DNA of 60,600 bases, counting the filler, from Hausera hauseri (taxonomy: Eukaryota): NCBI GenBank assembly GCA_046269625.1. It is 11 parts of 11 records of this genome, joined end to end, with 100 filler letters (N's around TTAATTAATTAA, not from the genome) between each part and the next. Parts side by side here need not be neighbours in the genome. Positions count along the whole stretch, not along the records: positions 33,210 to 38,313 come from JBJURY010334270.1; 10 more parts are not named here. One strand, 5' to 3'. Below the pieces are notes generated by a model. It had not been told where the DNA came from. It saw only the letters and a program-made list of their open reading frames with translations, and did not search any database. The first letter of the stretch is position 1, and each line of letters starts with the position of its first letter. The position numbers and the translations under genes were made by a program. This document shows positions 18,689 to 48,300 of this stretch, piece by piece.

Positions 18689-18699
18689 CGGTGGCGGGC

Positions 18700-22146: not shown

Positions 22147-22237
22147 GATTCGCCTGAGTAATCTATATAAAAAATATGGAATATAACCTACACATTTAAC
22201 AAAAATACCACCCAGACAGTTGCAAACAATATATTAC

Positions 22238-23860: not shown

Positions 23861-26036
23861 CATAATTTACTGGGACTAATGTCCAGTCCATAATGGTTTC
23901 TTTATCTAAGTCGGGAATCTCACTTTCCCTTTGGTAAACTTGATATTGCATTTGAAACATTATTTTAATGTGGTTGTTCACAGGAACGGACAGCTTTTCA
24001 GTCCTTTTGGACCTAAAAATTGGGGTTAAATAATTTCCTATGCTGAGGTTTTCCCAAGCGTATACTCCATCTGGTATTTCTTGTATTCCAGCGTTTTTCA
24101 CACAGAACATCGCTTCCTTTATTTTCTGATGGCTACAATATTCGGCCGTTACGAGTAGTCTGGAAAATTCTTTGTTCGTGGAAAAATGCACATTTTTTTT
24201 GATCTTTTCTTTTTCAAGACGTTCACTTCCCTGATAACGATATCGTTGTCTGATTTCCTCCTTTGGGTTTGAGTTCTAGTTTTCTTTTTATCTCTTCGGA
24301 GTGCATTTCTTTTCTTTTATTCGGGGTTTCTGTGCTCGGAGATTCCTTTTTTATTATTTCGTTTTGAGTTTCTGTCTTTTCAGGCTTTTTAAGTTTTGCA
24401 ACTACGGTTATCTTCGCCATTATTCTTCTTTTTGAATAAGTATTCGTATAGGGATAGTTTCCTTTTTCCCATGGAAAATATAGCTTCTTCTTCACCTTTT
24501 CGGTTTCTTTCGGATTTCTTCAGTACCTTGAATTCTTCTTGATCCTTGGATCTTTGCTTGACCGGCTCTGAATTTGGACTTTGATTGGTGCTGGGGTAAT
24601 TGTTTGTCGTGATGATTTGCTTCGGTTCAATTTTCTAAATTGTAACTAGGTAACTGTCCCCTGTTGTTGATTCAACCGTTCTGACGGAGAAATAAGGCCT
24701 AAAATGCCTTCTGTGTTTGAAACTTAATCCTTCGGGGTTTGTTGTGCTTGTCAAATTTTGTCTAGGGTTATCTGGAGTCCATTCGTGTTCCCATTTAAGT
24801 CCAGAATATATCTCTTAGATATTGGGAACGTTGACTCGCTGTCAAGAGTCTGCTAATTCGAACGTGTTCTCCACTCATAGCCTCCAACATTAGCTTAAAT
24901 CGGCCTTCTGCTGTCGGTGGTAAATAACCATTTCTTTTGCTGACGGTCTGTTCCATCTGCTGCATTACTACTGGGTAAGTCTCGATTTCTCTAACTCCAC
25001 TCACGTGGGTATCAGGTAATTTCAACTTCTTCATAATTCTTTCTATTTGATATCCAACAAGTATACTTCCATCCAGGCAATGGATTAATTCTTCGTGAAC
25101 TAATTCGCTGCCTCTGCCGTTAACTAATTGCTCCTTTTTGATTCCAGTAACTTCTGAAAAAGTTTTTCATACTTTCTTCTTAGGGCTAATGATTTCTGCA
25201 TAGAGTTCGGTTCCTCCTAGTTTTCGTATTGATACTCCAATTGGAACGTCATTTCCTTCGTCTGTTTCTCCGTAATTAACAGTAATAATCCTGGCATTTT
25301 TATCGTCTTGGACTAATTTGAAGGAGTGCAGGTGGTCGTCTTGATCATCTTCCGTTGGTCTTTGAATGAATCATAGTGGTGATAACTGAATAAATGGAGC
25401 GTATTCATAACATACTTCTATCATAAGTTTGACAGGCAGTGTGGCAACTCGAAATTCTAATTCACAATTGTAATGGTGGAAATCTGCGCTATTGATTAGA
25501 AAAGTACTGTATCTATGCTGACGTCTTTGTGCAGAATCCCAATTTTGATCTTTTAACCTATAATAGATTTCTCTGTCCGCTAAGTGAATAAATATATTCT
25601 GGTGATATACTGGTTCATATTGAACGAGTTGTTTTAATGCCTACGCTCGTACGTCCTTATCTTCTCTCATTGCGTATAATCGTACTGTCCGGTTCTCCTC
25701 GTTACTGCCTTTTAAGTTATTTGGGACCTTACGTGTTCGTTTGTATTCTACGAATTGCTTTCCGTGTAGTTCGTTATTGATTTGTCGGAATATTGACTTA
25801 GATTTAGGGATTAGTACTGTGGCACAATTCTGTAGGAAATCGTCGATGCTACGTCGGCTGTTTCCTGAATTAAATTTCTGGGCTTGATCGTCGATACTAC
25901 GTCGGCTGCTTCCGGAATCCATCTGGATTCTTATCAATCTAAACAATAGACAGTAAGGGTTAATCTTACAACAAAGCATAGTTTTGAACCAAAACCAATT
26001 CTTTGTTTGATGATAGAAGAACCCGACCTGTAATTG
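23861..26036 (-). pseudogene. Second copy of the long accessory ORF (homolog of 5243-7436), broken
   Basis: Shared blocks RRSIDxFLQ, IPxSKSIFxQINNEL, EIYYRLKDQxWDS, DFHH, LPVKLM, EVTGIxKEQLV, EYxSHQKIKEAMF. Confidence 0.8.
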
Positions 26037-26039
26037 TCA
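25955..26039 (-). promoter_or_regulatory. Candidate readthrough element UGA-CAA-UUA + stem-loop (copy 2)
   Basis: TGA CAA TTA CAG then an open frame into ORF 25641-25979; hairpin AACAAAG/CTTTGTT and TGGTTTTG/CAAAACTA. Confidence 0.65.
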
Positions 26040-27284
26040 GGTTATTTTATCATAGACATATTCTTGGGGTTCCCATACCCTTAATTCCCGTTCTACGATT
26101 TTAGTACGCTTAGTTCGACAATTTACGGTAACTAATCGAAATATCGCGATACATATTATAAATACAAGCGTTGACAGACTTACGATCATTACTATGGATA
26201 ATGTAGTCAACTTTTCGGGTTCATTAATCATTGTCTCAGTAGTAGTTTCTTGTCTTGTGTTTTTGTCTGCATGTGGCGCTATTTGCATTTCTGCTAAGGT
26301 TTGTATTGTAAACGTTTGACTCTGAGTATCTTTTGCATGTGTTTGGATTATATATTCCGTCTTGAGTTTTAACGAGTTACATTTGGCGTGATGTGAGCCT
26401 TTCCATAAGGTTGTTTTCACAGTTTTATACATCGTACGGCAATATATTTCGACATTATAATTAAGCTTCTCTTCTACTGAAAATAGTACTTTGTGTTGCT
26501 GTATAGAGCATTTTACAGGAATCTTAAGCCATTTCTTTTTGTTCATCTCGCTTGTTGTAGTAAGCTTACCAATGGTGCTTATTAGAGTAGTCCACTTCGT
26601 CGTCGTCGTTTCGATTGGAATTTTCCAGATTCCACTGTCTGGATGATATCTTCCTAAATAAATACTTGATTTATTTATTCTGATTCCATAGAGGTCAAAA
26701 TGAATCCTATATTCATGACCTGCTGCAATTTTACAACAAATCCTAAGATCTGTGATCTTTAGACTACAATATTCAGGCGTTGGACTTGACTCCTTTAATT
26801 TGGTAAATTGGATTGAGATTTCTTGTTTACTGGGCAATCTTCCTTTTGTGTCTATTTGGATACATTTGCCGTTCTTATTAGCAGAAATTTTGACTATATT
26901 TTCATTTAATACCCATTTGATGGGGTCCATCGATTGTACTATGTCATCGAGTTTCGTTATGTTAGCCCGTTCTTTAGCTGGTATGACTAATTTTACTTGC
27001 GGTCTTATTGCTCCTTGAGTGTGCTCATAGTTTTTGTAATACATTCGTATGGTAAAGGTATAAGTGTCTCCATAATTTACGACACAACAATTTTCTTGAG
27101 CTCCATATGGAAAATCACAATGAGTCATTACTCGTTTATTAGCGTTCCATAGGACTACTTGGTATCTTACCGATTTTTTCACGGCTCCGTCCGTCTTAAA
27201 TAACAGACAATCTCCTTTTGAGTCTATACTTTGGACTTTAAAACGATCTAAAGTGTTTAAATCATTTCTTTTTATTCTTATCAA
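26037..27284 (-). CDS. Retroelement-encoded type I membrane protein with about three FN3-like repeats, Thr-rich stalk, TM and YxxI tail
   Basis: Repeated strand motifs NYGDTYTFTIRM, AAGHEYRIHFDL, LKLKTEYIIQTHA; TM LSIVMIVSLSTLVFIICIAIF; tail YVYDKIT. Confidence 0.65.
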   Translation of the reverse strand: MIRIKRNDLNTLDRFKVQSIDSKGDCLLFKTDGAVKKSVRYQVVLWNANKRVMTHCDFPYGAQENCCVVNYGDTYTFTIRMYYKNYEHTQGAIRPQVKLVIPAKERANITKLDDIVQSMDPIKWVLNENIVKISANKNGKCIQIDTKGRLPSKQEISIQFTKLKESSPTPEYCSLKITDLRICCKIAAGHEYRIHFDLYGIRINKSSIYLGRYHPDSGIWKIPIETTTTKWTTLISTIGKLTTTSEMNKKKWLKIPVKCSIQQHKVLFSVEEKLNYNVEIYCRTMYKTVKTTLWKGSHHAKCNSLKLKTEYIIQTHAKDTQSQTFTIQTLAEMQIAPHADKNTRQETTTETMINEPEKLTTLSIVMIVSLSTLVFIICIAIFRLVTVNCRTKRTKIVERELRVWEPQEYVYDKIT

Positions 27285-27296
27285 TTTATTCTTCGT

Positions 27297-27722
27297 TTAT
27301 TGGCGCAATTGTTGTATTAATCCTCCTTGAGCATTGGCCTTCGGAATAATTGAGGCTTTCAGTGATAGTGATAAGACTATCTGTAAATAAGACATGGGTC
27401 TGGTAACAATAGACGAAGTTTTGGTTTTCTTTCCTTCTGTTTTCGGGTTCGCTTTTGTATCGTTAGTGCGTAATTGATATCGTTTTTCTGGCCTTATTTC
27501 CGTCTTCACCACTCGTTGTATTGACACAACTTCTTCCTTCCCGTTTTTACTAATAGAAACAGTGGTGGGTGTTACTCTGATAATTTCGTACGGTCCTCGT
27601 CCAGTACGCGTAAGTTTTAACGATGTGCCTTTCTTCGCTACGGGATAGTGTACATAAACCCAATCTCCGTTTCTTAGATCATGTGGTTTCGCGTTTTTGT
27701 CATACTGCTTCTTAAAGCTCAT
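27297..27722 (-). mobile_element. Gypsy integrase C-terminal (GPY/F) region followed by a signal-peptide-like segment
   Basis: KKQYDKNA..LRNGDWVYV..KLTRTGRGPYEII; then MSYLQIVLSLSLKASIIPKANA; same frame as 26037-27284. Confidence 0.8.
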
Positions 27723-28796
27723 GCAGCAGGACGAAGCACTTCTTTACACGCCTTAAGATGAGCCGCCGGAGCCCTGACCGTGTGAAAACCAGTATTGGTT
27801 TGACCGACATAAATAGGAGGCAGATTTAAGCAAAAAGCCCAACTCGTCTTTCCTGAGCGTGTTCCCTGAAGTAGTTGAAGAGGCCAGGAATAAGAATGCC
27901 ATTTGCATATTCACAACATGACTTGCCGGAGTCAAAGGAAACTTTGCCTCGCTATAAGCCTTGGGTGCTCGTGGTCCACGGTTTATTTTGTTTGTCTCCT
28001 AAATGCACCGCCGAGCACCTCAAAAATCGAAGATGAAAAATCGAAAAAAAAATATTAGACTTGCCAGTCATCGTCATCATCGTCATCATCAAGTGACTTA
28101 ACAATCACTGCTCGGGAAAAAAACAATGAAATCTACCAAGGCGGAGTTCCTCACTGGTGTCAATGAGATCGATTCTGATCCGAGGTTCTCCAGAGTGGAA
28201 GCGAACGGAGAACTTATGGATATGTATCCATGTGCAAAGATGTTGACCCTTCTACTCAACTAAAACCAACAAAACCAAACTAATAACAGTGAGAAGAAAG
28301 GTGGTATAAGTATAAAGCAACATCAACTATAACCTGACTTTCTAAACCTCATAGAAATCCTAATTCCTATTACTTTCTTCTATAAATGATTTATAAATTG
28401 TAGGTGTAAGTTATTGGGACAGATGACCAATGGACTTAATGCATGAGAAGCAAAACACAACTTGCATTTTACTGTTCAGTGAGCTGGTATAAGTTTTGAA
28501 ACAAAAAATGTCACCTTGCATTTCTAAAATCCCTCCCTAATCTACTCAAAATAGTTAGATTCTTTGTTAAGCCATATTTCACAAATTCCTTTGGTTCAGT
28601 TCATGTATTAACTGAGTTTACCGTTTTTTTTTTCTGTAATGGAACAATCTCATAATATTTGGCTTCTCAAAGAATATGTAATTTGCATAACTTTTCNNNN
28701 NNNNNNNNNNNNNNNNNNNNNNNNNNNNNNNNNNNNNNNNTTAATTAATTAANNNNNNNNNNNNNNNNNNNNNNNNNNNNNNNNNNNNNNNNNNNN

Positions 28797-30060
28797 TATA
28801 CCTGGCCGTCCTTGTAGTTTATCTGCCTTTCCGTCAGTCCTTTAAGGAAAAGATCCCCTCTTCATGGAGGCTCTCTTTTTAACTTTCTGTAAATCGAACT
28901 TGTTTGTTTCTGTCGCAAAACATTTCCATTTTTATGAACCTCCTTACCTTTTCCTCTGTTCTTTCCTTTATTTCTTCAATACCCTGTCCGATCCTTTCAA
29001 TATTTTAGGAGCCTTTAGAGTTGTTTAATGTAATGCCCCGACTAGCTCCACTTCTGTCGAGGCTCTGCATTTTGGGTTTGTAGACTCTGTGATGGATTCT
29101 TCGTAGTCCTCGGCAATATCTGCAACGTATGCGTGCCTGCTGTTCGCCCTCTCTCCATATCTTTTCTGACTATACCCCGCACTTTTGAAATTGTCGATAT
29201 ATGTATTTTTTTCTCTTCTGCTCTTGTCCAATTTTGTATAGCAGTCTTCTTTCCTGTGCCCTCTATTGTGACATCTATTGCATTTTATGTTTATATAATT
29301 TTGCCTTGTGTGTCCTTGCTGACCACATCCATAGCATATTATGGGTTTCCTTTCCGGGCAATTCCTGTTAATGTGCCGTTTTTTCCCTCAACCAAAACAT
29401 CTTGGTGCATGTTATAGGTTGCATGCCCTACTTGTGTGCCCGTCATTTTGGCACGACCACAATTTCATCGTACTCTGCCTGCGTATTGCGCAGCTTGAAA
29501 TCCTTTCCTTCACCGCCACATCCTGGTAACTCCGTCGACACTCTCTAGTGTATTCTCTGACTGTGTTTATCTCTTCCGTCTTTGTTGCCACTTCGTGGAC
29601 CTTCCGTATTTTCTTTTTGATTTGCTCCATGATGTTTTCGTCACTGCAATAGATTTCCTTTCTCATCTCTGGATTGTCGCAAAATTGGATCATCAATTCC
29701 TCTGTTAGGGCTTCCAATGTTATTTTGTGGCTAAGAATGCTCTTCGCCAATTGTTCAATTTTGTTGAAGTAGGCGTCCGGCTCTGCCCCTCATTCTGTAG
29801 TTCAAGGCCTCATGCAAATCTCCGCACCGCGTTGTGGGTTTTAAAAATGCTTTTCTCAACCGGTTTTGGTACCTTTCACTTTCTGGTTCACCAGATTGTA
29901 TTTTTCCTGTGCTTCATCCGCCATCAGACACAGGATCGCAGTTTCCTGGTCCGTCTCCGACATCTTTATGAAGTCGAAGTATCTCTCACACTTTCCAATA
30001 AAGGTTTCCACGCTGTTACCTTTCTGGAATTCTTTCGGCATCAATTTCTTCTCGAAGACG
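28797..30060 (-). mobile_element. Family B gag, second degenerate copy
   Basis: MMPKEFQKGNSVETFIGKCERYF homologous to 9395+; knuckles SCQNDGHTSRAC and CYGCGQQGH. Confidence 0.85.
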
Positions 30061-31554
30061 TCTCTTAAAGCGTTGAAGCACGTATCATGTCACGAGTGAT
30101 GATGTTTGAAACTCGATGAAAATTTTGTTGGTATTTGCCACACAACCTGTATCTAAATGATGACATGATGGCGTAATGCATAATATTTAATATATACATA
30201 CTACTGATGTATTTGTCAGTAGTATCAAATGTCATTTACTAATCTATATATAGTATGTTACATTTCAGGTTACTAAATCAATTATTGATTGAATGATTTC
30301 ATTTCAACGGGGGAGTTAGACAATTCATAAATTTATCAATTAAATGATCCAGACTACGGTTAATATAACCCACCTCATGGTGTATGTTTGACCACACTGG
30401 GTAAAATTAAATGGTCTGTGAATGGTCTAACTCCCACTTTGAAATTACAATGATGTCAGAAGTACAGATCATACTCTACCGTCTCATGCATTTCGGAATG
30501 GCTTGATTATCGGACATTCGAATGCAATGCAGGGTTGGAGGATTGCTGATTCTGTGATTCGCGGAACTTTTTACGTTTTTATTTCCTTGTAAATAATGTA
30601 CGGGTAACTATTGTTAAAGTTAAAACGGATGTCGATGATTTTACCACAAAAACAATATTAAATCCCATTATGATAACATACTGCATTCTAATATACTGCA
30701 TTTTTGTTTTAATGCATCAATTGAATGAAATTAATAAATCCGCCAAATTTAATTCATCATCTAGAAATTCACAGTGAAGCAACATATGCGCACCAGAATT
30801 TATCAATTCGCAAATATTCGAATTGTGAACCGATATGCGAACTTCTGACGTCATAATCGGACTCCCCATACATGTTTTCCTATCTATCTATGCTTAAAGA
30901 TTTATCGATTCTTGTACCCCACAGTTTGAAAATCAAGTTAATTAAAGCGCGTGCACACACATTTGTGAAATTTTCAATGTTAATTTACTCGGTAAGGATT
31001 CATCGAACATGGTCTATTTTATTTTTTATGCAAGGTTTTCACAGATGTGGAATCGAATAAAACCATCAGATTCTTAGAACAATGTACTCCTGATCGAGTT
31101 TTTGAGTTCGAATAGCTTTGTATTCGACTTGTAAGCTCGAATTAGAATACATGATACCATATTCCGATTTGCCATGCACGACTTCCTATCCCGCCCGCTT
31201 ATAGATTTATCGATTTCTACTTCAGTGGGATTCAAATTCACATTTTGCTTAATTCAGAATATTGACTTTGTATCTATATAGTACATTTTAATGCAATAAT
31301 TTTTATGCATTAGGGGTTTTCCGCTGTTAGAGTTCCGCTGTTAGATTTTTTGAATAGTTCGATATTCGATATTCGGGCGAAAATTTTTTCGAATTTCGAA
31401 TATGTAACTCGATATTTGAAATCTCCATAGTCGACTTCCAATCTGTCCCCGATAATTATAATACCGAATTTCGCTTTCTTGGGGCCTAAAAGCCTATGGG
31501 AAGTCTGCCTCAGTTGCATTTTTTATCGATATTATTCAAAATCGGCTGGATAAA

Positions 31555-32340
31555 TTTAAATTCTAACTTCACATTCATATAGTGCATCGTATTTCCAATC
31601 GATCCCACCAGGTCACATATCCTATTCATCAATATTGAAAATATCGGAAATCCGATATTATTGGTTTTTGCACACTTACACACGAGTTTTTGCACTGTGT
31701 GGTGTACATCATGGTACATCTCGATGTTCTCTATCTACCTGCACTTGACACCGATCGATTCCATCAATCCTAGGCTGCACAATGACCAATATGCGAAAAG
31801 TGAAAAAGTGCCTTGGAAACCGTATCCAAGAGCACAGCTGACTAGAGTACTTTACTGATCGATAGTACATCAAGTACTGCACCCGCCGATATATGTGCCA
31901 TATTGATATTATTGATTTTCAATTTTTAGCGGAAAGGCCTATTTATGTACTGTCCCAGTTGGTAGTTATTCGAAAACCAATCAATATATTTAAATTCTAA
32001 CTGCAGATGCACACAGTGCATCATGTATGCTACCGATTGCACCCGGTGCCGGGTGTAAATAATGAATATTGGGAATATCGGAAATCTTATATTATTGATT
32101 TTTGCACACCACATGTGCTGCACAATTGCACGGTGCACCAATCTATGAGCACTGATGTGCACTATCGATTAGCGCTTTGTCCCGATCGACTCGATAAACA
32201 CTGCACTATGCAGCGATCGATTTGTGAAATGTGCAAAAATGTGCTTAGCAACGGTGCCTAGCGGCACCATCGCCTAGCACTCTACCGATCGATAATGCAC
32301 AGCGTGCACTATCGACTGAGACATGTGCACTATCGATTTA
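31555..32340. repeat. Diverged tandem repeat with a period of about 430 bp
   Basis: tttaaattctaact...aatatcggaaatc..tattattg.tttttgcacac at about 31555 and about 31989; ORFs 31510-31719 and 31926-32162 are paralogous. Confidence 0.7.
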
Positions 32341-34820
32341 TAGATGCGCACACACCCCCGGGGGGATGTGCCAGAATCCCCATTTTTACTGTACTACCGA
32401 CCGCACCACTAAACTTGCCGTTGTCGATTTTACCACAAACCGTTCATTTCCCGACGGTAACATCAATGGTTCATTGAAATTCACCACTTTTCCTTTCGCT
32501 TGCTTTTTGTCTCTTTGACCGACTTCCCACTTTTTTCAAACACGCGAACCCCATGTTTCCCACATCATTCGAACGCCCATACTATACTCTACACTTTCTC
32601 TTATCCATTCCTGCTCAAATTTTGCTTCGGGAAAAAGTTCGTTTTTTTTTTGCATTTCCCGGATTTGTCTTTAGCGACACGCAAAAACCGACCTTACCAT
32701 TCAACTCGCCGTTGTCGAATTGACCAATCAGCATGCGAGCGTTACGTGGTTGGTCAGTTGGTGCGTGGGTGGATTCCCACCCATGTCCTTGTTCCAGATT
32801 CATCTTTTTTCCTCTACTATCTTGTAATAAAAATATTGTGAATGCCATATTTTTGTAAATTTTTATATATATATGTGCCAAAAACATTTAAGTATTACAT
32901 CAACCTTTACATTAATTTTTATAAATTTCGTTAATATTTCTACCAGATACTTTATTGTTCAATGGAAAATAGTTAATAAAAATAATTTACTTAATATTAC
33001 AACACTTTTGTAGATATCGAAGTTGTTACAATATACATATCCCGTTTCGGTGAACTAAACAATAGTTACTTATATGATGTCATTCAAGGAACACTGCATG
33101 GGTAAAATTNNNNNNNNNNNNNNNNNNNNNNNNNNNNNNNNNNNNNNNNNNNNTTAATTAATTAANNNNNNNNNNNNNNNNNNNNNNNNNNNNNNNNNNN
33201 NNNNNNNNNCGAATTATGTCGGCCTTTAACATTCGTTCTACCTCTTTCGTTATTTCTGGTCTCAATGAATGAGGAGGTGGATACCATTTAGGCATTTTCT
33301 GTTCCTCTAGATTGATTTCATCGTTGGAACAGGGTTTCTTCCTTAACGGGAATTGTTAATCTCAGGGCTTTTGCTCTGCCTGTGTCTTCCTCATTTTGTG
33401 CGATTATTGACCGGTACTTACATAGTAATTTGTAGAACTTTCAATATGCCTAAGGAGAGAATTTGGTTTCAACATGAGTTGAAAATTTAGCACACTTGTA
33501 TGGTTTCTCCTCTATTGTCACTGCCGATACTCTGTACGTATGACCCAAGGTAGCATACAATCTTACTCAGTTTGGCGCGTTGTTCACTAATTTGATAGGT
33601 ATTCGTCCCGTCATTATTCTACATAGAATATTGCTAAACATAAGATTTGGGTCAATGTTCTCTTAAGGCTCGAAGTATATTGGGCGATCCTCGTCCTGTC
33701 GAATCTGTGAGAAAATTATCATTTCAGTTTTAGGCGGAATGTCTTTATCTACCGGAATCCATAATTCGCCCGATTTCCTTTCCTTTATTACTTTTGTCTC
33801 TTTTATAGTTTCGAGCACAATTAATTTTCCGTTATGCACATCGATTGCCATGCCCGGCATTTGTTTTAATATATCACAACCTAGTACTACATCGTCTGTT
33901 AACTGGTCCATTATCGCAAGTTTATGTTGAAGTGCTTGGCCCATCATATAAACGGTAGGAGTCCATTTAACTTTCGACTTCGATACTTGCCCAAATGCCC
34001 CTGCGCTACCTGGATCCGATAATGCGGGTGGACATTGCTGGTCTCGCAATGTGGTTGGTATAGATTCATATTTTATAAACGATTTTTCTGATCCGGTGTC
34101 GATTAATGCATACCCTTCCCAATCTTCGATGTGTATTTTAGCGAAGGATCTTTCTTCTGCTACTGTTCCGTAGCAATTTGACACTATCTTTGATTGTTTT
34201 ATTGTGGAGATTCTATATCCATTTATCGTTATTTCTGGCGATGAAATGATATCTTGTTTTAATTGTATTTACTCTCCGTTCGGGTACAAGTTATTGTTTG
34301 TTATTTTAATAACGCGACTGTCGATGAGCGGTTCCTGGAGTAGTAGACTCGAGATCGAACACATTTTTGGGTTTTCTCAGATTGTTGATTTCGATTCTAT
34401 GTGACGCGGTATTCTTTTTGAGTACAATATTCCGTGGTCGTTTTCGGTTGGTCTTTGGTTGATAACATTCATTTTCCGTAGTACTCTGTATTGTTTTGTT
34501 TTTTCATAAGGAACTTCATAATTAATGGGCTTTTGATAGTTTTCGGACCTACGTGATACAATTGAATTGCGGTCGCAGTCTTCATATACTGGTGATGTTG
34601 GTGGAATGATGGGTAATGGCGCGTTAATCACTGAATACATCTTGTGCATCTTCATTCTGGAGCTCACTTCTCTTCCCTTAGGCTCGTCAGCATCTGAATC
34701 ATCCTTTCGTATCATTGCTTTCTTATTTTTACGTTTATTGAGAATCGACGGCCCCCCTCGCCGTTTGCGATTATAGTACCCGACGTGGCGTTCTACGTCA
34801 TTTTTCCATCGGTTCTCTTC

Positions 34821-36650
34821 TTAGGCCTTGAGCATTTTCCCGAAGGGCGTGATAATTTCAGTCAAAATTTTGCAGGAAAATCCTGTTAAGTTGAATATTT
34901 TATAGCCGTTGATGATGGCTTGGATCACTGCTTTGATTACTTTGACTAAAAAGTAAATGGCTAGGAATCCAGATGCGGCTCGTCCAAAAATTAGAAACCT
35001 TCCCCAAATCTTATACAGTATTTTTGAAGTTACCCTTTGATAGTGATTAGCGCCGAGTAACGATTCCCATTTCACTTGGAAGCGGGTGTCATCCATGACC
35101 ATTGACATAGCCCAATTCAGTTCATAAGTTCTTTGGCGTGGAAATGCTAAGAATTGCTTAAATGCTTCTATGTCTTTTGGTCTATAAATTCCTTTATTAG
35201 CCGTGTCCTCAAACTTCTCTTCTGATAATCCCTTTATTAAATTTGTCCCAGTTAGTTTACTAGGGCCTGCGGCAGCGCCTCCATTGGGCAAACGTATCCA
35301 GTCGGTTCCACTACGTCGGAACATGGGTTCACCTAGACTCGTCTTACATTATTTCAGTACTGCTGGTTCGGTTGAGTTTGCCGATAATACTCTGGTGAGT
35401 GGCATCGCTAGTCTTGGCATATTCTCATAGATGACCGGTAATTCTTGCATACATCTTTTCTCTTCTACGTTGATTTGTACGTCTCTTTTCTCGCATGCAT
35501 ACGTTAATAGGACTTCTTCGGTATCTCGTCCAAAAACGTCTTCCTTCATTGGTATAATTGGTGATGCTAGTTCTGGGTTGGCATAGATTAAGGCCAGCTT
35601 GGTTCTCATGACTTCAGTATCTAATCTGCAGTCATTTGTTATCATTTTGTGGTATAGTTCTGCTATTCCGGTCTGTTCTTTGAAACAGAAATAGTCGTCT
35701 CGATTCTTGAGATTATCCTCAATCCGTATGTCTTGCGTTTTCAAATTATACGTTTTCATGTTGATTTCAGTTTCTGCCACGAAAAATGCTTCGTAATTTG
35801 TGGCATACATAATTACATCGCAGCGTGTAAACATTTCTTTTCTAAGAAACTTCAATCCATGTGCGTCCGATATCAATGTCGTCGGTGTGAGATGATCTAT
35901 AACATTTTCCCTTGATCTAGTATTTGTGTGTAACTTATCTGTATAACGTTTTACGCTTGTCTCATTAAACTTTAGTTCTTTGATTTTAATGAAGTTACAA
36001 TCTCTCTTGGAGGGTGGGCTCCATTCAACGACTGAACTTCTGAACGTGCAAGCTCCATCTTGAATGTGACAGTTTTGATTTTCAGTGAATAGCTTGGTAA
36101 CACTATAAAACATCGCTTTTAAAGATCTTAATTCGGTTTCATAAAAGTCCACGACTACTATTCCTCATTCTATTCTGTTCCCTGTGTCATATTTTCCTCC
36201 GACACAATAACCGGTATGCATGTTCAATTTTCCTACTGCCACTTTGTAGGCTCTAATTATTTTCTATTCTTAGGCTTCCAGTTCCATGCTGTCCCAGACC
36301 ATTTTACCTGTTAACCGGGCTCCTAAACAATGTTGTGTATCTACGTTCATTGGAATCAATGGAGTGGTCGGTTTAATTATTGAAGAATGCCCGTGCATAT
36401 TGCCACAATGAAAAATGCTGCGAGAGCTCCGTATCGTGCATTCTGTCGCATCCATTGCGATTAATTCACGTTGTTGATATAATATGTACCTTTTTTGTCT
36501 CGAGTTTATGAGGTCTCGCATCTTCGTATGTTTCTAAGTCCATTAAGGAATATTTCTGACCCACTTTGAACTTATCGCAATTATATACGGTAACTGCCCC
36601 TAACTGCTTCACTAGCATCATTATCGTCACCAAGTTGATTAACCAAATGG
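34821..36650 (-). pseudogene. Chuvirus-like glycoprotein (env-like), broken by stops and frameshifts
   Basis: Signal-like IWLINLVTIMMLVKQLGA then VTVYNC; ECTIRSSRSIFHCGNMHGHS; TM WGRFLIFGRAASGFLAIYFLVKVIKAVIQAIINGY. Confidence 0.8.
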
Positions 36651-36927
36651 ATTCGTTTTCTTTGTTCGGAGAGATATTTCGTATGATGTCTTCTAAGTTA
36701 TTAGTCCCTTTTGAATTATCCTCTTTTTCAAATAATTTAGTCCATTTTATTTCCTTAGGTACTCTTCTTGCAGCTTTTCTGGCTAATTCAATTGTCTTGT
36801 CAAATTCATTTTCCCGAAAAGGGTTAGTTTTTAATGCCAGATATATCAAGACTTTCCTTAATTCTTCCATCGTATTGTCTATCGTAATTCTTTCAATTAC
36901 TGTTTCCTCAGTGAGAGTGCTTTTAGA

Positions 36928-37767
36928 TTATTTAAATCGCGAAGTTCTTATCGTCCGGGTTATATTATATATTAGTCTTTCCTTCTCAGATAGTATGTCG
37001 CCTTGGAATTCGGTGTAATTGACTGTGCTTATTAGATCTTTCATTAGTTCAGTCAGTTTTTCATTATCGGAACTTGGAGTAGGTACTGATAGTTGTCTTA
37101 ATTCTCTAATCAGATCCGCGTTATAACCGATTTCCTTTATTTTTCTTGCTCTTCCGACCGGCCGTTTCGCTTTTATAGGTGGTGCGGTTTCGCTCAGCGG
37201 GACTATATTCTTATCGTATTGCGGTTTGTCCTCGTCCGTCTGTAAGTATTCGAAATACATTGAAGCAGCCTGAATCCCCATGATTCTTCCAACGCACTGT
37301 TCTGTATGTGCCTTTCTCATAGCTTTGTCTTTGGTTTGCTCACTGGCGATTATTGTTAATATTATCCTATTTTCCTCGAAAGGTATAATCCCTACGTCTA
37401 TTAAGGATTTTAACTTATCTAGTATCCTACCTCTGAAATATAGCCGATAATTAATTCCTTTCCTATCATCCTTATCCATTATCCGTTGTTTTATATCCGC
37501 AACAGTGGTATAAGTAGTGCACTCAAATTCCTCGTCATCCATCCATTCGGATGATACCTTTACTTTAAGTTGCGTTTTTGGTTTATTTCTTAGAAATTTA
37601 GCGTACTTCTTTATTAGGAGCTTGGGTACAGCGCTGTATGCGGTATTTTCACTAGATAGTTTGGTCAAGGTTGGAATCAATCTCCTTAACCTATCTTCAC
37701 TTATATGTATTTTCAACACATTGCTCAGTTCCTTTTCGGCTATTGTAGGATCAAGCAGCATTTGCAC
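36928..37767 (-). CDS. Family A upstream protein segment with an internal ubiquitin-like domain (about 37348-37575) and AT-hook-like motif
   Basis: QLKVKV..TTVADIKQRI..YRLYFRGRILD..SLIDVGI..IILTI follows the ubiquitin-fold pattern; KRPVGRARK. Confidence 0.7.
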   Translation of the reverse strand: MQMLLDPTIAEKELSNVLKIHISEDRLRRLIPTLTKLSSENTAYSAVPKLLIKKYAKFLRNKPKTQLKVKVSSEWMDDEEFECTTYTTVADIKQRIMDKDDRKGINYRLYFRGRILDKLKSLIDVGIIPFEENRIILTIIASEQTKDKAMRKAHTEQCVGRIMGIQAASMYFEYLQTDEDKPQYDKNIVPLSETAPPIKAKRPVGRARKIKEIGYNADLIRELRQLSVPTPSSDNEKLTELMKDLISTVNYTEFQGDILSEKERLIYNITRTIRTSRFK

Positions 37768-38413
37768 GTCAAATTTCGTCCTCTGGGTACCAATAAGTTA
37801 CTCAAAAATTTGTATTGAAATTCTTTGGCTTTGTTCGTTTAGACCTTGGAGATATTCATCACACTCGGCTTCATTACCTGCGTCAGGTAACTCAGTTCAT
37901 TAGCGCCGCATGTCCGACCTGGACTCTTTCGCGTAATTCTCTTATCTAAAGTTGCAATGTTTTCATTACGGATATCCTTAACCCGTCTCCATTTCCGCAC
38001 TCTTGTTGTATAAATGTTATTAGTCGGCACATTTCTTCTGGTTTTATCAAGGCTTTCTCCCGATAACTAGTCATTTCTGTGATTCTGTCTCTTTGTCATC
38101 TCTGTATAAATTCCATTTTGTTGTTCATTTCAGATTCCGTAAGGGAATACTTGTTCTTGAAAACTTCTGTTTCTCTCAGTAATTCGTTTAGCTCGCGTTG
38201 TCTTTTCTCGGAGCGTAACCGGGTTTCTTTTACCAAACGTATTCGATTTGTTAGTCGTTTGGCTACTACTTCGTCAATTTCTGCCATTTCTGTTAATAAT
38301 AGGATTAATTTGTNNNNNNNNNNNNNNNNNNNNNNNNNNNNNNNNNNNNNNNNNNNNTTAATTAATTAANNNNNNNNNNNNNNNNNNNNNNNNNNNNNNN
38401 NNNNNNNNNNNNN

Positions 38414-38487
38414 AAAAACACTTCCTAGCATCCCTTCAAAATCGCGTGTGATAAAAACAAGTCATGCGTCCGCCAGGTGAAATGGAT
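38414..38487. repeat. Exact 74-bp terminal direct repeat of the contig (second copy 44363-44436)
   Basis: aaaaacacttcctagcatccc...ggtgaaatggat is identical at both ends. Confidence 0.95.
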
Positions 38488-39525
38488 CGATCAGAGTGTC
38501 TGGAAGTACTTCTCTCCCTTAGAGGTCTGGTTTCGCTTCGTCGAGGCCTATTGAGATTATTTAGTTGGATTGTAATGGCTAGAATTGACTGCTGTAAGTC
38601 GTCAAACTGTCGCTGCATAAATTGCAATTGTTGTGAGAATGAAATGTTGTCGGTGTGTGAAGGTATGTGAGCGGTTGTTGCAGCTACTGGTTGTGGATTA
38701 TTAGACTGCAAAATGTCAAAACTTTTGTCTGCCAATAAGGCGAGCTTTCCAGGGGCTGTAGAGTCATCTACTACGGTGAGTAGCGCCCTGATGGAGGTAG
38801 GCAAAGATGAAGGAAAATACCGACGAAGAAGATTGGCATTATTTATGGGAGTGACGCCCAAGGAGCTCAATTGCGAGATTGCAGTTTTAAGAAAATCCGA
38901 TGGTTTTTGATTTCCGATGGCGTGTTCATTAAAGTATTTCTAAATTATGCTGTCAATGGAGGGGTCGGTGATATGCAGAACTGATTCATACAGCATACCA
39001 TATGGACTTGAAGAAGTAAGTTTGTCAGCAAAATTGTTGATTTGCTGATTGATGTAAGCTGGAAGTAATAGCATCAAACTGTTCGCCCGCAAAAGGAGTC
39101 TGTAATATGATTGGCTTTAAGCCATTGCAAGTAGAACTGCAACCAGGTACGACTAGAATTTGTCTTGTTTAGAAAAAAATCCGTGCAGGGAAAATTAGGA
39201 CATGTATTTAGTATGGAGTCGATAGGACGACGACCAGATTTGGTCTTTATGGGGTTTTCCACATAAGAAGGATCGGGTCCGGTCCACCACGTAAGTAAAA
39301 ATGGAGCATGAGACAGGTGTCTGGACGTTTGTGGCATAAGAAAAACGAAAGGGAGTCTGAAGGATGTACTATAAGCCCTTGATGTGTGAAATATAAATCA
39401 CAGATGCTATATGATGAGGACAATGCGGTATATAAGAACTGTGCTGTCTCGTTGAGTGGAGCATGTAAGGTGGTAATGTGTTGGTTGTAGCTAAAGACCA
39501 GGAAAGATAATTGTAATGAGGTCAT
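38414..39525 (-). mobile_element. Family C 5' end: UBL (ends YLRGG at 39283) fused to gag; degenerate
   Basis: Homologous to 17831-18688; Gag runs to MTCFYHTRF at the contig edge and continues at 44436. Confidence 0.85.
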
Positions 39526-39725
39526 ACCAAAGGCACGATGAAATGCACGGGGGCTTGAGCAGTTACCTTTTGGATTAAGAAGCGGTTCGAGCGTACAGTC
39601 GGGATAGTGGTGGCAAATGATGTTTGGGATAAAGAAATATACAAAGACGTTAAGTTTAGAAACCCTTTAAAATGAAAAATAGTTTAAGCCAGGAAGGGTC
39701 TACACATGCACAGAGAGTGGTAACA

Positions 39726-40058
39726 CTAGTGGGTAAAAATCAATGAAAATGTCACCCACCTGTGTTTAGATGAATCTGATGATGGAATGTCCACCGGTCG
39801 ATCGGCGAGGTTGCTATTGACTCGCGGTACGTTCATAAAATCGTTGCGGTAATCCGGTCCAGAAATTTCAAGAGTTTTCATAACCTCTAACTGTACGTTG
39901 TAATTAGCAATTTTACCCAGAGCCTCTGGTGGCGGAATAGCGGATGTAAGTGAACCATTTGTCTGGAAATCAGGCACCAAGCCAGCAACTTGTCTTTTGA
40001 AGTCATCTTGCCATTTCTTTTTCAAGTTCATCTCTTCATCTTTGGAAATGTTTTCCAC
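39726..40058 (-). pseudogene. Unidentified host-like coding fragment
   Basis: 110-aa open frame of normal protein composition ending at a donor-like ag|gtgggt; family not recognised. Confidence 0.35.
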
Positions 40059-40109
40059 ATTGACGCTGGTATTCCATCACCATTAATTGCTTTATTTAGT
40101 TTATTCATA

Positions 40110-40355
40110 GTCTTAACAGTTTAAAATGCAGTGGAAATGGCATTATGGGTCATAACTGCACTTCTAAATCGATTGTAATCATCGTGCCACGACGTTGCTT
40201 TGACATCCAAAATGATTCCCCGTCGATCTCAGTAATTTCGAATTCTTTTCAAATATAGATTCGATTTGCACCAAAATTAGTTCGACTTCGGTACCTCGTA
40301 CACCTTAGAAAATTGTTATTTGAAAACGAGCAAAATGAGCTTGGCGCTAACAAAT
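40110..40355 (-). pseudogene. DNAH2: Axonemal dynein heavy chain (DNAH2-like) N-terminal-region fragment
   Basis: QAHFAR..GVRGTEV..IESIFEKN..GIILDVKATSWHDDYNRFRSAV. Confidence 0.7.
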
Positions 40356-40768
40356 TTCCATTAAATATTTTTATGTTTCAATACTCCAGTAACTTGTACC
40401 GTTTCTTTAACATCATGGATCTTAAACAAACTGTTTTCCTCAGTTGGATAAAGACTGATTACAACACAATCCCACTTCTGACACCAATTTAATTTTGCTT
40501 TAGATGAATCCATTAGTAAAACAATAAATCCAGAGAAGAAGTCTATTTAAGAAAAGTTTCTATTTCAACGTCTATTTAAAAAAACTATCAATTATTCAAA
40601 ATCAATTTTTTACAACCTTGTTCATATAACATACTCATGAGATTATATTCTTCAAAAACGAACTAAACTTTATTAGAATTATCAATCAGTAAGTTCAAAC
40701 ATGTTCACTTTTTGTCATCAATGGTGTATTTGTCTAAGATTATTGATCCAATACAACCGTTAGTTCAT

Positions 40769-40985
40769 TAACAACCGAACTTGTCTTATTTTTTCATCTA
40801 TTATTGTCGAGTTTGATCTAGATCGGGAAATCGCTGGTAATATCGGTTTCATCTTCCTGATTCAGTGTTGCACGTGCAACAGAAAAAAACGCTTGTTCAA
40901 CATTCAAAGCTTCTTTAGCGCTATATTCGAAATATGGAATATCACTTTTAGATTGACACAATTGTTGTGCTCTTTTCGGCTGTAC
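40769..40985 (-). pseudogene. RAB7: Rab7 C-terminal fragment
   Basis: VQPKRAQQLCQSKSDIPYFEYSAKEALNVEQAFFSVAR..DFPI*IKLD. Confidence 0.85.
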
Positions 40986-41039
40986 GTAATGTCTTTATAG
41001 ACCAATCTATCCACTGATGATTATCGTCTCATTCCAATA

Positions 41040-44000
41040 TTGTCACACTGGTGGGGAAAGTCCTCCCATCGACACGTTAAGCCCTCCAATGAGACCACAC
41101 TCTAAGCACTACATCACCCCCCCCTTGGTAGAAGAGAAACTGTGCAAAGGTGGAAAGAAATGATAACGATAATAAGGATGAAAGGAACAATGTTTGACGT
41201 CTATTTGGTTTTGGTATGAGTTAGGCGTTGTGTGCCGTTACAGAATTTTTCTTTGCTGTAGGTGCTAAAGGTCACTATACGCGCCTTACATGAATGGTTT
41301 GTGCTTGGTTGTAGTTCGACGTTATGTGATGGAGGTGATGAGGAGAATATGTCAAGCAAAGGAGGCGATGCAATTGAACGCGATGAAACAGTGGGTATAG
41401 ACAAAGAAAGCGAAGAAAGTAGTGACATGATGACGGAGAGAAAGGCGAGAAGGATGGAGGAAATGATGATTGAGTGTGGTCAAACAGTGATCGCTGAAAC
41501 GGCGCAAAGTCGTTTAGAAAATCGGTAGACGAAAGTGTTGAGTTTGAATTGGTGTTAGCATTGACATTCGGATTGTCATAAATGAAGAAAGCAGGCTTTA
41601 GATTCAAAATGTGGACGTTGTAAGGTTTATCTTGGCGTAAAACGGTGGCTGTGTGAGACGAAATATTTAGCAGTTTGTACGGGCAAACATATTAAAGTCT
41701 AAAGCCTAAAAGTGATTGATCTTTTAACCACACAAACTTGGAGGCGTATAAATCCTTCGGAATATATGATTTGTTGCTGTTAAAGAGGCGACAGAATGAA
41801 TCTGAGCTGACCTCGACGAAGTGAGATTGTGCCGCACGAATGTTTTCGTCTGTAGGGTTGTCGACGAGATCAGAAAGTTCGAATAAGACCCCAATTGGAG
41901 TCACAAAGAGTGCTTCGGCTGGAGCACAACCGGTAGTGGTAGAGGGTGTGTTGCGCCAACCTAGTAGAACAAATGGTAGAATGGACGTCCAATTGCGATG
42001 AGTGTCAGCCAATATTTTTAAGGAAACATTTTTGTTCGATGGAACCTTTCAAGAAGGCTATTTGCTTGAAGATGATATGGTGTAGCACGAAAATGGGATA
42101 TTCCCAATCGTTTGACAAGTGATTTTAAAAGTTTCGACTAAAATTGTGGACCTTGATCCGTTATTATGTAACGTGGGGAACCAAAGCGACTGATACAGAT
42201 TTTTATAAAGGTGTCGGCAACTGAATCAATATTCGTTAAACGAAGAGGAACGACTTCAGGCTAGCGAGAAGCACGATCCATCATGGTAGGTATATGTTGA
42301 TATCCGTTGTCTGAAGATAAAGGACCAACTGTATCAAGATGAACCGTATGGAAGCGTGATGTACAGGGAAAATGGTACAGCGGCGGTTTAAGGTGTTTGT
42401 TGATTTTGTTTTTTTGACAGGCTACACATTCCTTAACCCAGCCCTGTATATCTTTGCGCATTGATGGCCATACAGCGTGACGTTGAAGCAAGCAAAAAAT
42501 TGCTTTCGAACCCGGATGATAAAGTGAGTGCGTATGAAGGAAAGCTGGCTTTTGTAAAGGTGGAGTTAGAATTATCTTTTTATTACCGGAATTCGACGTA
42601 TCAAAAGCAATGCCATCAATAATTTTGAAGGATTTAAAAGAGCTAAGGAAGTCGGTAGACGGTTAATTGGCCTTTAAGACTTCAGATGATAAAATTGGCT
42701 CAACTGTGTTGGATCTAACCAACCTCGATAGAACGTCTGCTACCAAATTGTTTGTGCCTAACATATATTTCAACACAAAGCTGAACGTAGACAGGTATGA
42801 TATATGTCTCTCTTGGTTCGGTGATGGCTATTTTAACGACATGATGTGCAGTAGAGGCTTGTGATCAGTTTGAGTGACAAATAAACGAGAAAGAAGTAGA
42901 TGTTTGTAATGTTTTACTGCCAGAACTATGGTGAATAACTCACGGTCAAATTCTGAATAACGGCTTTCAGGTTGCGTGAGCTTTCGGAAATAGAATTCTA
43001 ATGGTTCATCAACGCCATTGTATATTTGGTGTAATATCGCACCAGTTGCTGTGGTCGAGGCATCGGTGGTAAGTATAAGATCTGCGTTGGGCTTTGGATA
43101 GGCCAGTATTTTGACGGATTTTAGGCCATCGTAGCCCCACAGTAGATCGCGGTGAGTGATCTGCTTTGTGCAAAATAGCTATTTGAGATATTTTTTACAA
43201 AGATATTTGCGCAAGTCTTGCCATTTTGCGGAATAATAACGTGCGTTTAACCTCTAATTAATATAGAAAATGAAGCGACTGTATGACAAGTGTTGATGCC
43301 AGATTTTACCATTGTTTTCATGAAAATTGGATTGCAAAGGACAATTAAACATGTTTGTGCATGTTTAAGTGCAATAGTATTTGATTTTGAATTGATTGGT
43401 TTGTAATAAACATCAAATATTAATGAAATATGGTTCACTGGCAATGTATTGATTTTCATTTTTCTACAAAAATTTATATTTGACGGATTTTTCCCACTAA
43501 AAGTGATAAAATACTAATAAATATTTGGTAAAATAGTTATATTTTGTTATTCGTTGCAAGCAATCTAAACAAAAAGGGTGCATGATGTTAAAAAATAAAT
43601 ATACGTCAGTTTCTTCAAGGTGGCCTCAAACTTTTGACGGGGAGTGTAAGTCTGTTGTTATCAGCCGATAAACAACATGTCAAATTGACATTTGAATGAA
43701 CAGAGGGAAACAAGGTGTACGACTGTTCGTCTGGAAAGCATTTGTTGGTATTTGCAACGGAGTTCCTCCGCAAGAGACATCTATACTTACAGTCGACTAA
43801 AAAATCGTATACAGCTAGGAAATCGGAACCTGTTATGGGCGATCTAATGTTGGCTATATGAAATTTCCAGGAGAATTTCCCTTGTAGGTTGGAGAATGTG
43901 AAAGTCAGTTTTGTGGTACCTACAATGTTTAAAGGTTGACCACACGCACTGAAAAGTGGAGGAGAGAAAACTATGTTATATGTAGGAGCGAAAGACAAAG

Positions 44001-44436
44001 GAAGAAGTAAAAAGAAGTTCCTAAATCAATGAGGAAGTCTATGTGTGAGGTGTCTCCAAATAACATTTCAGCTTCCAACAGAAAGACTGCAGAGGCGGTG
44101 TCGAAACGGCCAGAAGTTTGAACGATATTGCCTGTACCAGAATGTGCCGTGGCATCTGGTGGCATTATTATTTTTTTTGAGACTTGGTAGAAAGAGGAGG
44201 AATGGTGAGTGCGAGGAGGCGAAGAAGGTGGAAAGAAACTAGAATTCCTTTTTTAATGTTTTCATCCTGGTACACATGATCTAGCCCGTGATTGAAACTT
44301 GTTGTGATAGACATAAATGAGGTTGTCCACAGCATACCGCTTGCTGTAGAACCAACAGCCCAAAAAACACTTCCTAGCATCCCTTCAAAATCGCGTGTGA
44401 TAAAAACAAGTCATGCGTCCGCCAGGTGAAATGGAT
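41040..44436 (-). mobile_element. Family C 3' part: gag end, PR, RT missing, RH, IN, Ser-rich tail, PPT, LTR start
   Basis: FLIDLGTS and ITGSDFL; TTDAST; CVACQKNK..HLDTVGP; poly-G PPT then TGATGT at about 41111-41125; RT replaced by AT-rich DNA at about 43130-43610. Confidence 0.85.
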
Positions 44437-44718: not shown

Positions 44719-45357
44719 TTTCTTTTATCTTTTGTTGTTATGCAAAGGTTGTACTTTTGAGCACACTTTTTGAAATCTGTATAATTCATGTTATTTCAAC
44801 TTTACGTTTTCAATGGGAGTTAAAAACGGCAAATATTTAAACAAAAACTCATTTCTTAATCTAATCAAATTCAACATCAAACATACCGATTTTTTTAATC
44901 AGATAAATTGCATAATTCTTACGTTTCAATAAGTGATGGATTAAATGCACACCAAGTTTAACTAAAACATTCACATGCAATTAGATTGTATACATGCAAC
45001 AATTAATTGATATCAACATATGACGAAATTTAATTTATCGTACTTATTCACTACTGACAGAAATAAGCAATATATTTATATACATTAAATGCTCTTTGTA
45101 TTCTGCAATTCGTTTTATTTAAGTCTGACTGTACTCAAAACTCTCATTGAAATGCGAGACTTTACATTGATCACACAAGTCAATATTAATGCTACTATTT
45201 GTTCTAAATTTGAAAAGAAATATTACTAATTTTCTTGATAAATGAAATGTTACTTTGTTATTTGAATCGGATTTATAAAATCAGTTATTATTGAATTATC
45301 GCAGATTTTTGAATTATCAATAAAAGAAGTTTATACTGCGTTATTTTTTTTTTCGTT

Positions 45358-48300
45358 ATGATTGAAAAGACAATGGTGTCAGTTAAATCAAATATAACAG
45401 TTAAATCAAATAGCACAGTTAAATCAAATATAACATATAGTATTAGAAGGAATTCAGAAATATGGGAAGTTAAACGGAAACTTAATCGTGTTTACTGGAT
45501 GCCAGACTCGATTTGTCACAAATGCTATGGATGTGACGAAGAATTTACTACCATAAAACGAAAACATCACTGTCGTATGTGTGGTCAAATATTTTGTTAT
45601 GGGTGCTGCAGTTTCGTACTTCCAGGATCGTTATGGAATTTATCGAAACCACAAAGATCATGTCGAAATTGTTTTCAGTCTTTTTATTCAAATGGAAACC
45701 TGAAAAATCACAATTCAGATTTTTTCCACCAATGTCAGAACGTCACATCTGAATTACATTCTCAAAAAACATTGCTAAACAATAACAACCCAACAAATTT
45801 TCCATCGCATACATCTGGTGATTCTTTAAACCGTACGCTGTCGTTTAGTTCTCAAGATATTGCTTACGTTAGTCAAAAACGAGATCCGCTATTGTCATTT
45901 GTTGACATTGATAGTTTGGAAACAGAATCTCTTGAAAATGTTAAGAGCACAGACGACCTTTCAACTATTAAAAGAACAGCCAGTTTGCCAAAATTAGACG
46001 CCATTGGAGGTGACTCATTTATTGAATGCCGGTGTGAAACTCATTTTGGAGATACTGCCTATAGACGTATTTGGTTATCAGTTTCAGTTAACACCAAATT
46101 TCCAGTGGGTTCTACTTTGCAGGTATTTTGTTTTACAGACTTTGTTAATTCGACGGATAAAGGTTTTTATAACGTTAATCAGTCATGTTTTAAAGATGGC
46201 AATCCAATCAACGTTACAGAATATGTTTTAAACTTTACGAGTCGTTACTTCACTTTGACTATTGAAAATGTTATTAGCAATTATCAAGGTTCTTATAGTT
46301 GCAACGTAGGTTTCTGTAATAATAATAATTATAATGATAACTCATCACGTTGTTATATTGTAAAAAGTTGCAATCTGCACATTTTAGTTTTTTCACCAAT
46401 GTTTGTCAAAAGATGTACTACAGGTCAACCTCTTATTGCTGGACAGCTGGTCTGGATTTCATTGACGGCTTATCCGGGGGAATACTGGTTCAAAACCTAT
46501 TCACGTTTGTCAATTACGGATGAACCAAAAACGTGGCATGTTCAACCACCTTTAGCAGATGGAACGTCATTAACAGCTAGTGAATTATTTGTTAATGTAA
46601 CTATTACTCTACCGGAATATCCGTTTGCTTATCCGCACGTAAACGTTTGTTGCACGATACAAAATGACGCAAATACACCTTTACGTTTAACATCATGCCA
46701 TTTATTTGATGTCATTCATTTACTTAAAGGTTCTATACAGACTAAACCGCCTGTGCATCATAATCAAAGAATTAAAGTTAATTCCACAATCGTATGTTAC
46801 GGACTTAGCGGATATCCACGTCCAACATATAAATGGATTCGTTTATCACCATCTGAGATATCATTCAGTGCTTTCCAAATTCCTAATTTAACATCCATCA
46901 ACGAAACACTTTACGTTGATAGTCGGAATACCGTTCGTGGTCAAATGTACATTTACCAATGCATTGCCAGACAACTTTCCCTTCATATTTCTTTCACCAT
47001 TCAGTTTGTTGTAAGCTTATGCAGTCATGAACTGATAATGGACCTGTTTGTTGCTGTCAATACGCAAATCCACACGACGTGCGGTTCTTCAAATAAGCAG
47101 GGTTCTGAATTTTTTAATGTTGCATACAAACCTTTTTTACAACGTTTCTTTTTATCTTTACCAATTACTCCAAAAAAGACACAATTGTATTTAATTCCAT
47201 TTTTAAATTTTGACCTGAAGCACAACGCAACGTTTGTTGAATGCTCCGACAATGTACTTTGTCCAAATATTTCCGACATTTTGCAATCATACCATAGCCA
47301 ATATAGGTCACGTTTCATTCGGCCATGTGATGGAATGGAATTGTCGTGCTCTGATGTGGGTTTAAAAAACCTATACTATACCATAAATAAAGGAAGAAAG
47401 AATATTCCAAATATAGCCATCTTGGGTCGTGATGAGTCAGCCTGTGTTCAATTTAGCTACGATAAACGTGATTTAAAACTATATTCACAACTAATACGAG
47501 ATGAAAATTTTCTGATTTGGCTTCATTATTTCAATAGAAACATTAAATATATTATTGATGAAGAACCACTCATACAGCCAAACAGAACATTCATGCTCGT
47601 GAATAATTCATTGAATATATCACATTTTGGAGTATGTTGCAATCTCACCGAATATGCCTCTTTGTTTTCAATCGATGGACGCGACTTTTTAGATAGCGTT
47701 TGTTCTAAGTCCGCCATATCAAAGGATCCGTTAGGCAATCCAAATTTAACAATTTACTCGAAATTAATTTATTTAAATCTCGTTGTTACAGTTGAGTGCA
47801 CTGGAAATCCTGGCTATCCGAATGGTTCATTGACCATTTGTATCGGTGAAAACAATGCTCCCGATTGTACGTTGATCTTAAATAACATTACAAATTACGA
47901 AGAGGATAAAGTCTTTAACGTTGTTTACAATTTAACATTAATTTCTCAGTTTGATAAGAAATGGGTCATATGTATTGCAACAAATGCCATTCAAACTGTC
48001 GGGTTCGATCAGTTTTACTTTACTTCTACTCAACTGAACTATGTTTATAAACCAATGAGTTTTATGTTCATTAGCATCTATCCAAAAATCATTACTGAAG
48101 GAAGTACAGTTCTTATCAATTGTTCATTCAGCATTCCTATTTCCCCACCGATACATGTCGTAACATTGTCAAAGGAAGGAAAATTTCCCATTACCTTATT
48201 AACTGGCTTTATTAAACCAACTCAAAGCGAACAGTTTTTTATGAATACTCTACACGTTTAGTTTAACCAATATAACAAACGTTTCAAATGATCGGGACGG

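Follow-up and report, generated by a model that had tools for sequence, protein, structure and literature searches.

What is encoded upstream of the glycoprotein in an env-bearing retroelement of the Hausera hauseri genome, and where is the capsid gene of that element? The question arises from a window of 60,600 nucleotides, the whole stretch of DNA analysed here, which consists of 11 short contigs joined by N spacers. On one of these, 33210-38313 (JBJURY010334270.1), a coding-like tract on the minus strand leads from an open reading frame with a ubiquitin-like domain (UBL) into a fusion glycoprotein (G), and then into a protease and the beginning of a reverse transcriptase (RT).

Contents of the window

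The coding-like tract of contig 33210-38313 runs into the contig end at 38313, where the N spacer begins. About 1.7 kb are visible upstream of G, and about 1,700 codons are present on the contig down to the RT start. The order is coiled-coil-like stretch, UBL, helical region, hydrophobic segment, gB-type G, membrane anchor, tail, protease, spacer and RT start. The features are given below in the direction of translation, followed by a second copy found elsewhere in the window. Several are set against their counterparts in Burro/GYPSM1, the giant gypsy-like LTR retrotransposons of planarians, Burro1-4 (PMC6431247, cited throughout from the excerpted text of that paper).

38099-38311, minus strand: charged helical stretch, coiled-coil-like, in the place of Burro's Smc-like region and cut off by the contig end
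37798-38098, minus strand: broken zone, with stops at 38098, 37948 and 37800 and a frame change near 37895
37342-37569, minus strand: probable ubiquitin-like domain, no terminal GG; sequence-based, fold unconfirmed by model
37141-37167, minus strand: basic motif KRPVGRARK, not a canonical AT-hook
36928-36930, minus strand: in-frame TAA, probably a decay stop
36649-37130, minus strand: region predicted to be helical, lying between UBL and signal peptide at the position of Burro's BCL-2-like domain; BCL-2 undetected
36589-36648, minus strand: hydrophobic segment, likely the internal signal peptide of G; the only hydropathy peak in the 443-residue read-through
34824-36588, minus strand: Monjiviricetes/chuvirus-type (gB-like) fusion glycoprotein with a C-terminal membrane anchor; PF24664 in three pieces
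33855-34157, minus strand: retroviral-type aspartyl protease (PF00077, E 2.7e-6), sharing its frame with most of G
33210-33830, minus strand: protease-RT spacer, at the position of Burro's dUTPase-like domain, then the RT start at the contig end
54736-60600, plus strand: second, distant member with helical region, signal peptide, G, tail, protease, spacer, RT, RNase H and integrase

PF24664, matched in three pieces of G (E 3e-8, 6e-13 and 8e-21), is above the cutoff and lies upstream of the protease. G itself is broken by stops and by one frameshift near 36500. In the second copy PF24664 is likewise above the cutoff and upstream of the protease, and G, tail and protease occupy a single stop-free frame of 815 codons (55595-58039), after which RT, RNase H and integrase follow in that order by Pfam. 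The best PDB match of the second copy's RT is the Ty3 RT (E 3e-32). The two G proteins are 31-39% identical, the two proteases match with an E of 8e-14, and the spacer between protease and RT, about 140 codons long, is common to both copies (E 6e-5); a Pfam scan of the spacer gave no dUTPase match. Comparison with the second copy by eye identified the RT start at the end of contig 33210-38313. The A-run near 36500 was considered as the site of a programmed -1 shift, and this was rejected: G continues in the other frame, and the second copy is single-frame there. A search with the second copy's G against longer proteins found none of 2,062 candidates related, a search with a three-sequence G alignment none of 5,612, and scans of viral contigs and metagenome contigs found no related locus.

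The initial annotation had assigned a G signal peptide to the downstream reading frame, and the hydrophobic segment at 36648-36589, which precedes the start of G, agrees with that assignment. The Pfam G model in the second copy begins at the matching hydrophobic segment. At the other end of the tract, the charged stretch at 38099-38311 is composed of 46% E/K/R/Q and contains no Pro or Gly. Its heptad moment is weak: of three segments scored, the best was equalled by 87 of 2,000 shuffles and the others by 147 and 404. A Pfam scan of the stretch returned no match.

Other contigs of the window carry other elements and host-like pieces. An intact frame of 982 codons at 45313-48261 (plus strand) combines a FYVE finger (E 1e-16, with a PIKfyve-like start by eye) with Ig-like domains and looks like a chimera of two host genes. 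A gypsy gag start is closely preceded, at 18654-22233 (minus strand), by broken, apparently intron-free pieces of a TMEM131-like gene (PF24498) and of a DEAH helicase (Helicase_C; by eye it resembles spindle-E); this is probably a host mRNA capture. A second retroelement family is found at 23861-27743 (minus strand) and 4861-11472 (plus strand), with extra ORFs after the integrase C-terminus. Its members share a set of ORFs, with 67% DNA identity over 1,058 bp. A 419-aa protein at 26037-27296 has a hydrophobic segment late in its sequence, 7020-7436 is the remnant of a RING, and 8524-9090 is a CxxC-rich ORF. Related Gag-like pieces with weak zinc-knuckle matches occur at 29025-29789 (minus strand) and 9640-10822 (plus strand). 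The latter was rejected as the Gag of the env-before-pol family, as a protease-like motif directly follows it (by eye). Three related compact gypsy elements (11573-17730, 17831-18482 and 38414-44436) are 65-78% identical in DNA and have a Cys-His-Cys-Cys Gag motif, which we take to recall the CsRn1 clade. The same 74 bases are present at both ends of the third of these contigs (38414-38487 and 44363-44436), as would be the case if the assembly path was circularised or if they mark the end of an element. Finally, there is a degenerate tandem array of about 0.9 kb at 51309-52242, and a 144-bp direct repeat with 74% identity (31532-31675 and 31966-32109).

The probable ubiquitin-like domain and its reading frame

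The stop-to-stop frame at 37797-36931 (minus strand, 289 aa) contains the residues which had been read as a ubiquitin fold without a terminal GG. At the level of sequence that reading is supported. Residues 77-152 of the frame (37569-37342) align with ubiquitin without a gap and are identical to it at 16 of 76 positions, most of the core hydrophobic positions being kept together with K27, R42, L43, F45, G47, L50 and L56. K48 is replaced by R and I44 by Y, and the terminal Gly-Gly, the mark of a conjugatable ubiquitin or SUMO modifier, is missing. By alignment score to ubiquitin this frame ranks first among 259 ORFs of the window, and its score was matched by one of 5,000 shuffles. The Pfam ubiquitin model gives 23.2 bits (E 5.8e-5), below its cutoff of 25.4, and Rad60-SLD_2 an E of 0.0038. 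In a PDB sequence search the best 31 matches were all ubiquitins or engineered ubiquitin variants, and the best single-domain match was a viral ubiquitin (E 0.0025). A phmmer search of 1.84 billion representatives returned one match, a polyubiquitin (E 4e-4). Among the Atlas matches listed, the six named clusters are all ubiquitin-like or CLU_N, with scores of 0.85-0.87 that serve as leads, and three of the six carry PF11976, the family cited for Burro. When the whole frame was compared with longer proteins, none of 4,166 candidates was related.

Modelling did not bear out the expected beta-grasp fold. A single-sequence model of the domain had the right order of elements (strand-strand-helix-strand-strand) at a pLDDT of 62.5, yet no ubiquitin appeared among the Foldseek matches listed for it, and none of these had an E up to 0.001. 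AlphaFold gave a pLDDT of 36 for the entire 289-aa frame. On sequence grounds, the UBL is likely to be real.

An AT-hook is defined by its central Gly-Arg-Pro core. The AT-hook-like motif of the initial annotation, KRPVGRARK, is indeed present at 37167-37141, but it has GRA instead of the GRP core and the Pfam scan gave no AT-hook match there. It is best called a basic motif.

The reading frame around the UBL is only partly as it had been described. The region 36928-38313 had been taken as one open frame, and it is not: upstream of the UBL frame it is interrupted by a TAA at 37800-37798, the frame shifts near 37895, and the upper frame carries two further stops, at 37948 and 38098. Beside that shift, at 37893, eleven contigs of sequencing run X1 (about 16% of the local depth) are of another length than the window. 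The observation that the UBL frame is in phase with the signal-peptide-bearing frame at 36466-36870, with a single TAA between them, was confirmed. The frames 37797-36931 and 36927-36469 are separated by the TAA at 36930-36928, which is the sole stop between 37797 and 36469. The upstream tract contains four stops in 614 codons, compared with 6.5 expected from the 11 stops in 1,044 codons of G, protease and spacer; its off-frames contain 51-54 stops per 475 codons. The coding tract is likely to be continuous across the TAA at 36928.

The TAA could instead be the natural end of an ORF1 made up of Gag with coiled-coil and UBL extensions, followed by an env-pol ORF that would begin at the ATG at 36870 or be reached through readthrough or splicing. 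That ATG is in frame, 20 codons after the TAA; a survey of errantiviruses describes GAG, ENV and POL ORFs in the order GAG-ENV-POL (PMC13524379, of which the main text is cited here in part); and among the 40 difference rows listed, out of 1,137 for run X1, none falls on the TAA. Against these points, the second copy is without a Met where it aligns with ATG 36870, the upstream stop count needs no special cause, and in Burro the ubiquitin-like domain and env are within one ORF (PMC6431247). We regard a two-ORF arrangement as unlikely. Since the number of upstream stops matches the rate of the element, and the second copy lacks the Met, decay is the simpler reading of the TAA, and the TAA and the breaks above it are likely to reflect decay in this copy.

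Whether the UBL belongs to the element at all was judged from contig coverage in the same run, X1, which is possibly the window's own source and hence not independent of it. In that run 11,343 contigs align to the stretch, 9,057 of them less than 95% alike, and 30 of 30 bins are covered. The summed depth over the UBL bins is about 3,800-6,100, within the range over G and protease, this depth not being a copy number. Individual contigs that diverge from the window (about 82-86% alike) reach across the TAA, at 36678-37091, and over 37405-37826 and 37441-37919. Because many divergent contigs cover the UBL evenly with G and bridge the joints, the UBL is a family trait of the element and not a one-off host insertion. 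A piece of host gene, or an assembly chimera, joined to G in this copy only would be in keeping with the assembly of the window from short contigs and with the captured host-gene pieces on some of the others. That explanation is largely refuted by the even cover over UBL, TAA and G and by the bridged joints. It is also opposed by the homology of the downstream helical part to the second copy and by the host proteins, among which nothing matched except ubiquitin itself, and it is scarcely credible. The homology in question is weak (54762-55061 with 36927-36631, E 4e-4, 30% in the alignment), and the second contig, 54736-60600, begins downstream of any UBL position.

We therefore hold, with good though not full confidence, that the segment is the middle part, now decayed, of a Ty3/gypsy element present in many copies, in which env precedes pol, likely as one long Burro-like polyprotein, with Gag likely to lie farther upstream than the contig reaches. 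What is generally known of viral polyproteins suggests how such a product might be processed. Synthesis of the N-terminal part, ie Gag, accessory modules and UBL, would take place in the cytosol. As an internal signal peptide, the hydrophobic segment would direct G into the ER, and signal peptidase would cut the segment. The C-terminal anchor of G would stop transfer, so that protease, RT, RNase H and integrase would stay cytosolic, and the pol portion could be released by the element's own protease. With no terminal GG, the UBL would not undergo conjugation; it may be an integral module for interaction with the ubiquitin, proteasome or apoptosis machinery of the host.

Position of the capsid gene

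The initial annotation had reported about 1.6 kb upstream of G without a CA or CCHC motif, and this description stands. None of the minus frames of contig 33210-38313 contains a CCHC or CHCC pattern, and Pfam scans of pieces upstream of G found no Gag family. No LTR, primer-binding site or Gag was seen on the contig, and the one primer-binding-site motif that was searched for had no matches, a result which says little. From the blank region it had been proposed that the polyprotein extends N-terminally and that Gag is far upstream, highly diverged or replaced. The first part is favoured by the coding character of the tract from UBL to coiled-coil, and a Gag far upstream is what Burro predicts; positive evidence for a diverged or replaced Gag is absent.

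The N-terminus of Burro ORF1, which encodes 4,873 aa in one species and 5,140 aa in another, carries a typical Gag and CCHC knuckles (PMC6431247). Because this published order puts Gag N-terminal and far from env, the capsid gene of the present element most likely lies beyond the contig end at 38313. If the element is sized like Burro1, about 2,000 codons including Gag would be found there.

The same blank region might also be expected of an enveloped element in which Gag is missing or replaced, the leader of coiled-coil, UBL and basic motif packaging the RNA, or a capsid being borrowed in trans. The capsid and zinc-knuckle signals are absent from the 1.7 kb seen, a basic motif is present, and the upstream region is without relatives in large protein searches. 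However, the contig stops inside the coding tract, and with Gag at the N-terminus of an ORF as long as that of Burro (PMC6431247) a blank 1.7 kb is to be expected. Such an element is very unlikely here. Similarly, we find it highly improbable that the family as a whole is without any capsid-type Gag. In that case, once signal peptidase had freed G, the leader would stay on the membrane as a matrix-like, RNA-binding protein linking genome and pol to the envelope, ie the element would be a capsid-less reverse-transcribing virus. In giant polyproteins of this kind the absence of a capsid from a short contig is a truncation effect, and the finding would matter more only if full-length natural copies were without Gag.

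Comparison with known enveloped elements

Capture of this class of envelope has been described in other LTR retrotransposons. The glycoprotein of Anakin is of the same chuvirus class, and Anakin belongs to the BEL/Pao superfamily in mosquitoes (PMC7642597, from the part of the paper available), whereas the RT here is Ty3-like. Troyka was rejected as the identity of the element, as it is without env in the portion of PMC12440569 available. Closer are the GAG-ENV-POL 'ancient errantiviruses' of Platyhelminthes, Nematoda and Bryozoa with an Env of HSV/gB type (PMC13524379), which share with the present element a gB/chuvirus-like env placed before a Ty3/gypsy pol. Of the traits of Ty3/gypsy GAG-ENV-POL elements, a Ty3-like RT and the order PR-RT-RH-IN are found in the second copy, and a gB-type env upstream of pol in both copies. 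Compared by eye, env sequences of S. mediterranea from that survey have runs of motifs in common with both copies in the window. The errantiviruses described are intact, whereas the copy here is dead. The word 'ubiquitin' has no occurrences in the main text of PMC13524379, and neither have 'fused' and 'polyprotein', an env-pol fusion not being discussed in that text.

The one relevant paper returned by a literature search for a UBL in such elements was PMC6431247, on Burro. In its excerpted text, a Ubi2/SUMO-like domain (PF11976) lies between MATH and BCL-2. After BCL-2 and ahead of the protease comes an in-frame env that matches fusion glycoproteins of mononegaviruses, and a dUTPase-like domain separates the protease from RT. 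ORF1 also has Smc, MATH, BIR and ankyrin motifs, and Dugesia japonica contains decaying copies with stops and frameshifts. BCL-2 and dUTPase, which are present in Burro, were undetected here. For the helical region between UBL and env, BCL-2 was absent by Pfam and by PDB sequence searches, and an Atlas search with the helical ORF of the second copy gave no usable match. Against two viral BCL-2 proteins hhalign gave a probability of 0.04%, and the best of the shuffled pairwise scores was 38 of 500. All of these tests were negative, though of low power, given two-sequence profiles and decayed copies. A likeness of the helical region to BH motifs, seen by eye, failed the tests against the two viral proteins. 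As a separate observation, BCL-2-family proteins are encoded on two viral contigs 130-148 kb long (L002:195-725 and L006:305-802), that of L002 with a BH4 region.

As BCL-2 was not detected, the element is filed as Burro-like and not as Burro, a likeness of layout and not of tree or of Burro sequence. The resemblances to Burro and to the flatworm errantiviruses suggest a flatworm host. Gag, MATH, BIR, ankyrin, the LTRs and the giant size of Burro lie beyond what a 5.1-kb contig can show. The role of the UBL, the excision of a type I fusion protein from Gag-Env-Pol, and infectivity are questions already posed in PMC6431247, and a dead copy makes them no more testable. The layout is not new, having been published for planarian Burro. 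Here as in Burro, a ubiquitin- or SUMO-like domain is found upstream of a mononegavirus-type fusion glycoprotein. In both, env is in frame with the protease, over 815 stop-free codons in the second copy and with scattered stops in the copy on contig 33210-38313. A protease-RT spacer, a coiled-coil-like region and decayed copies are likewise common to the two. The present work adds one decayed, many-copy Burro-like family, and confirms in another genome the published layout in which a UBL precedes env and env is fused to pol.
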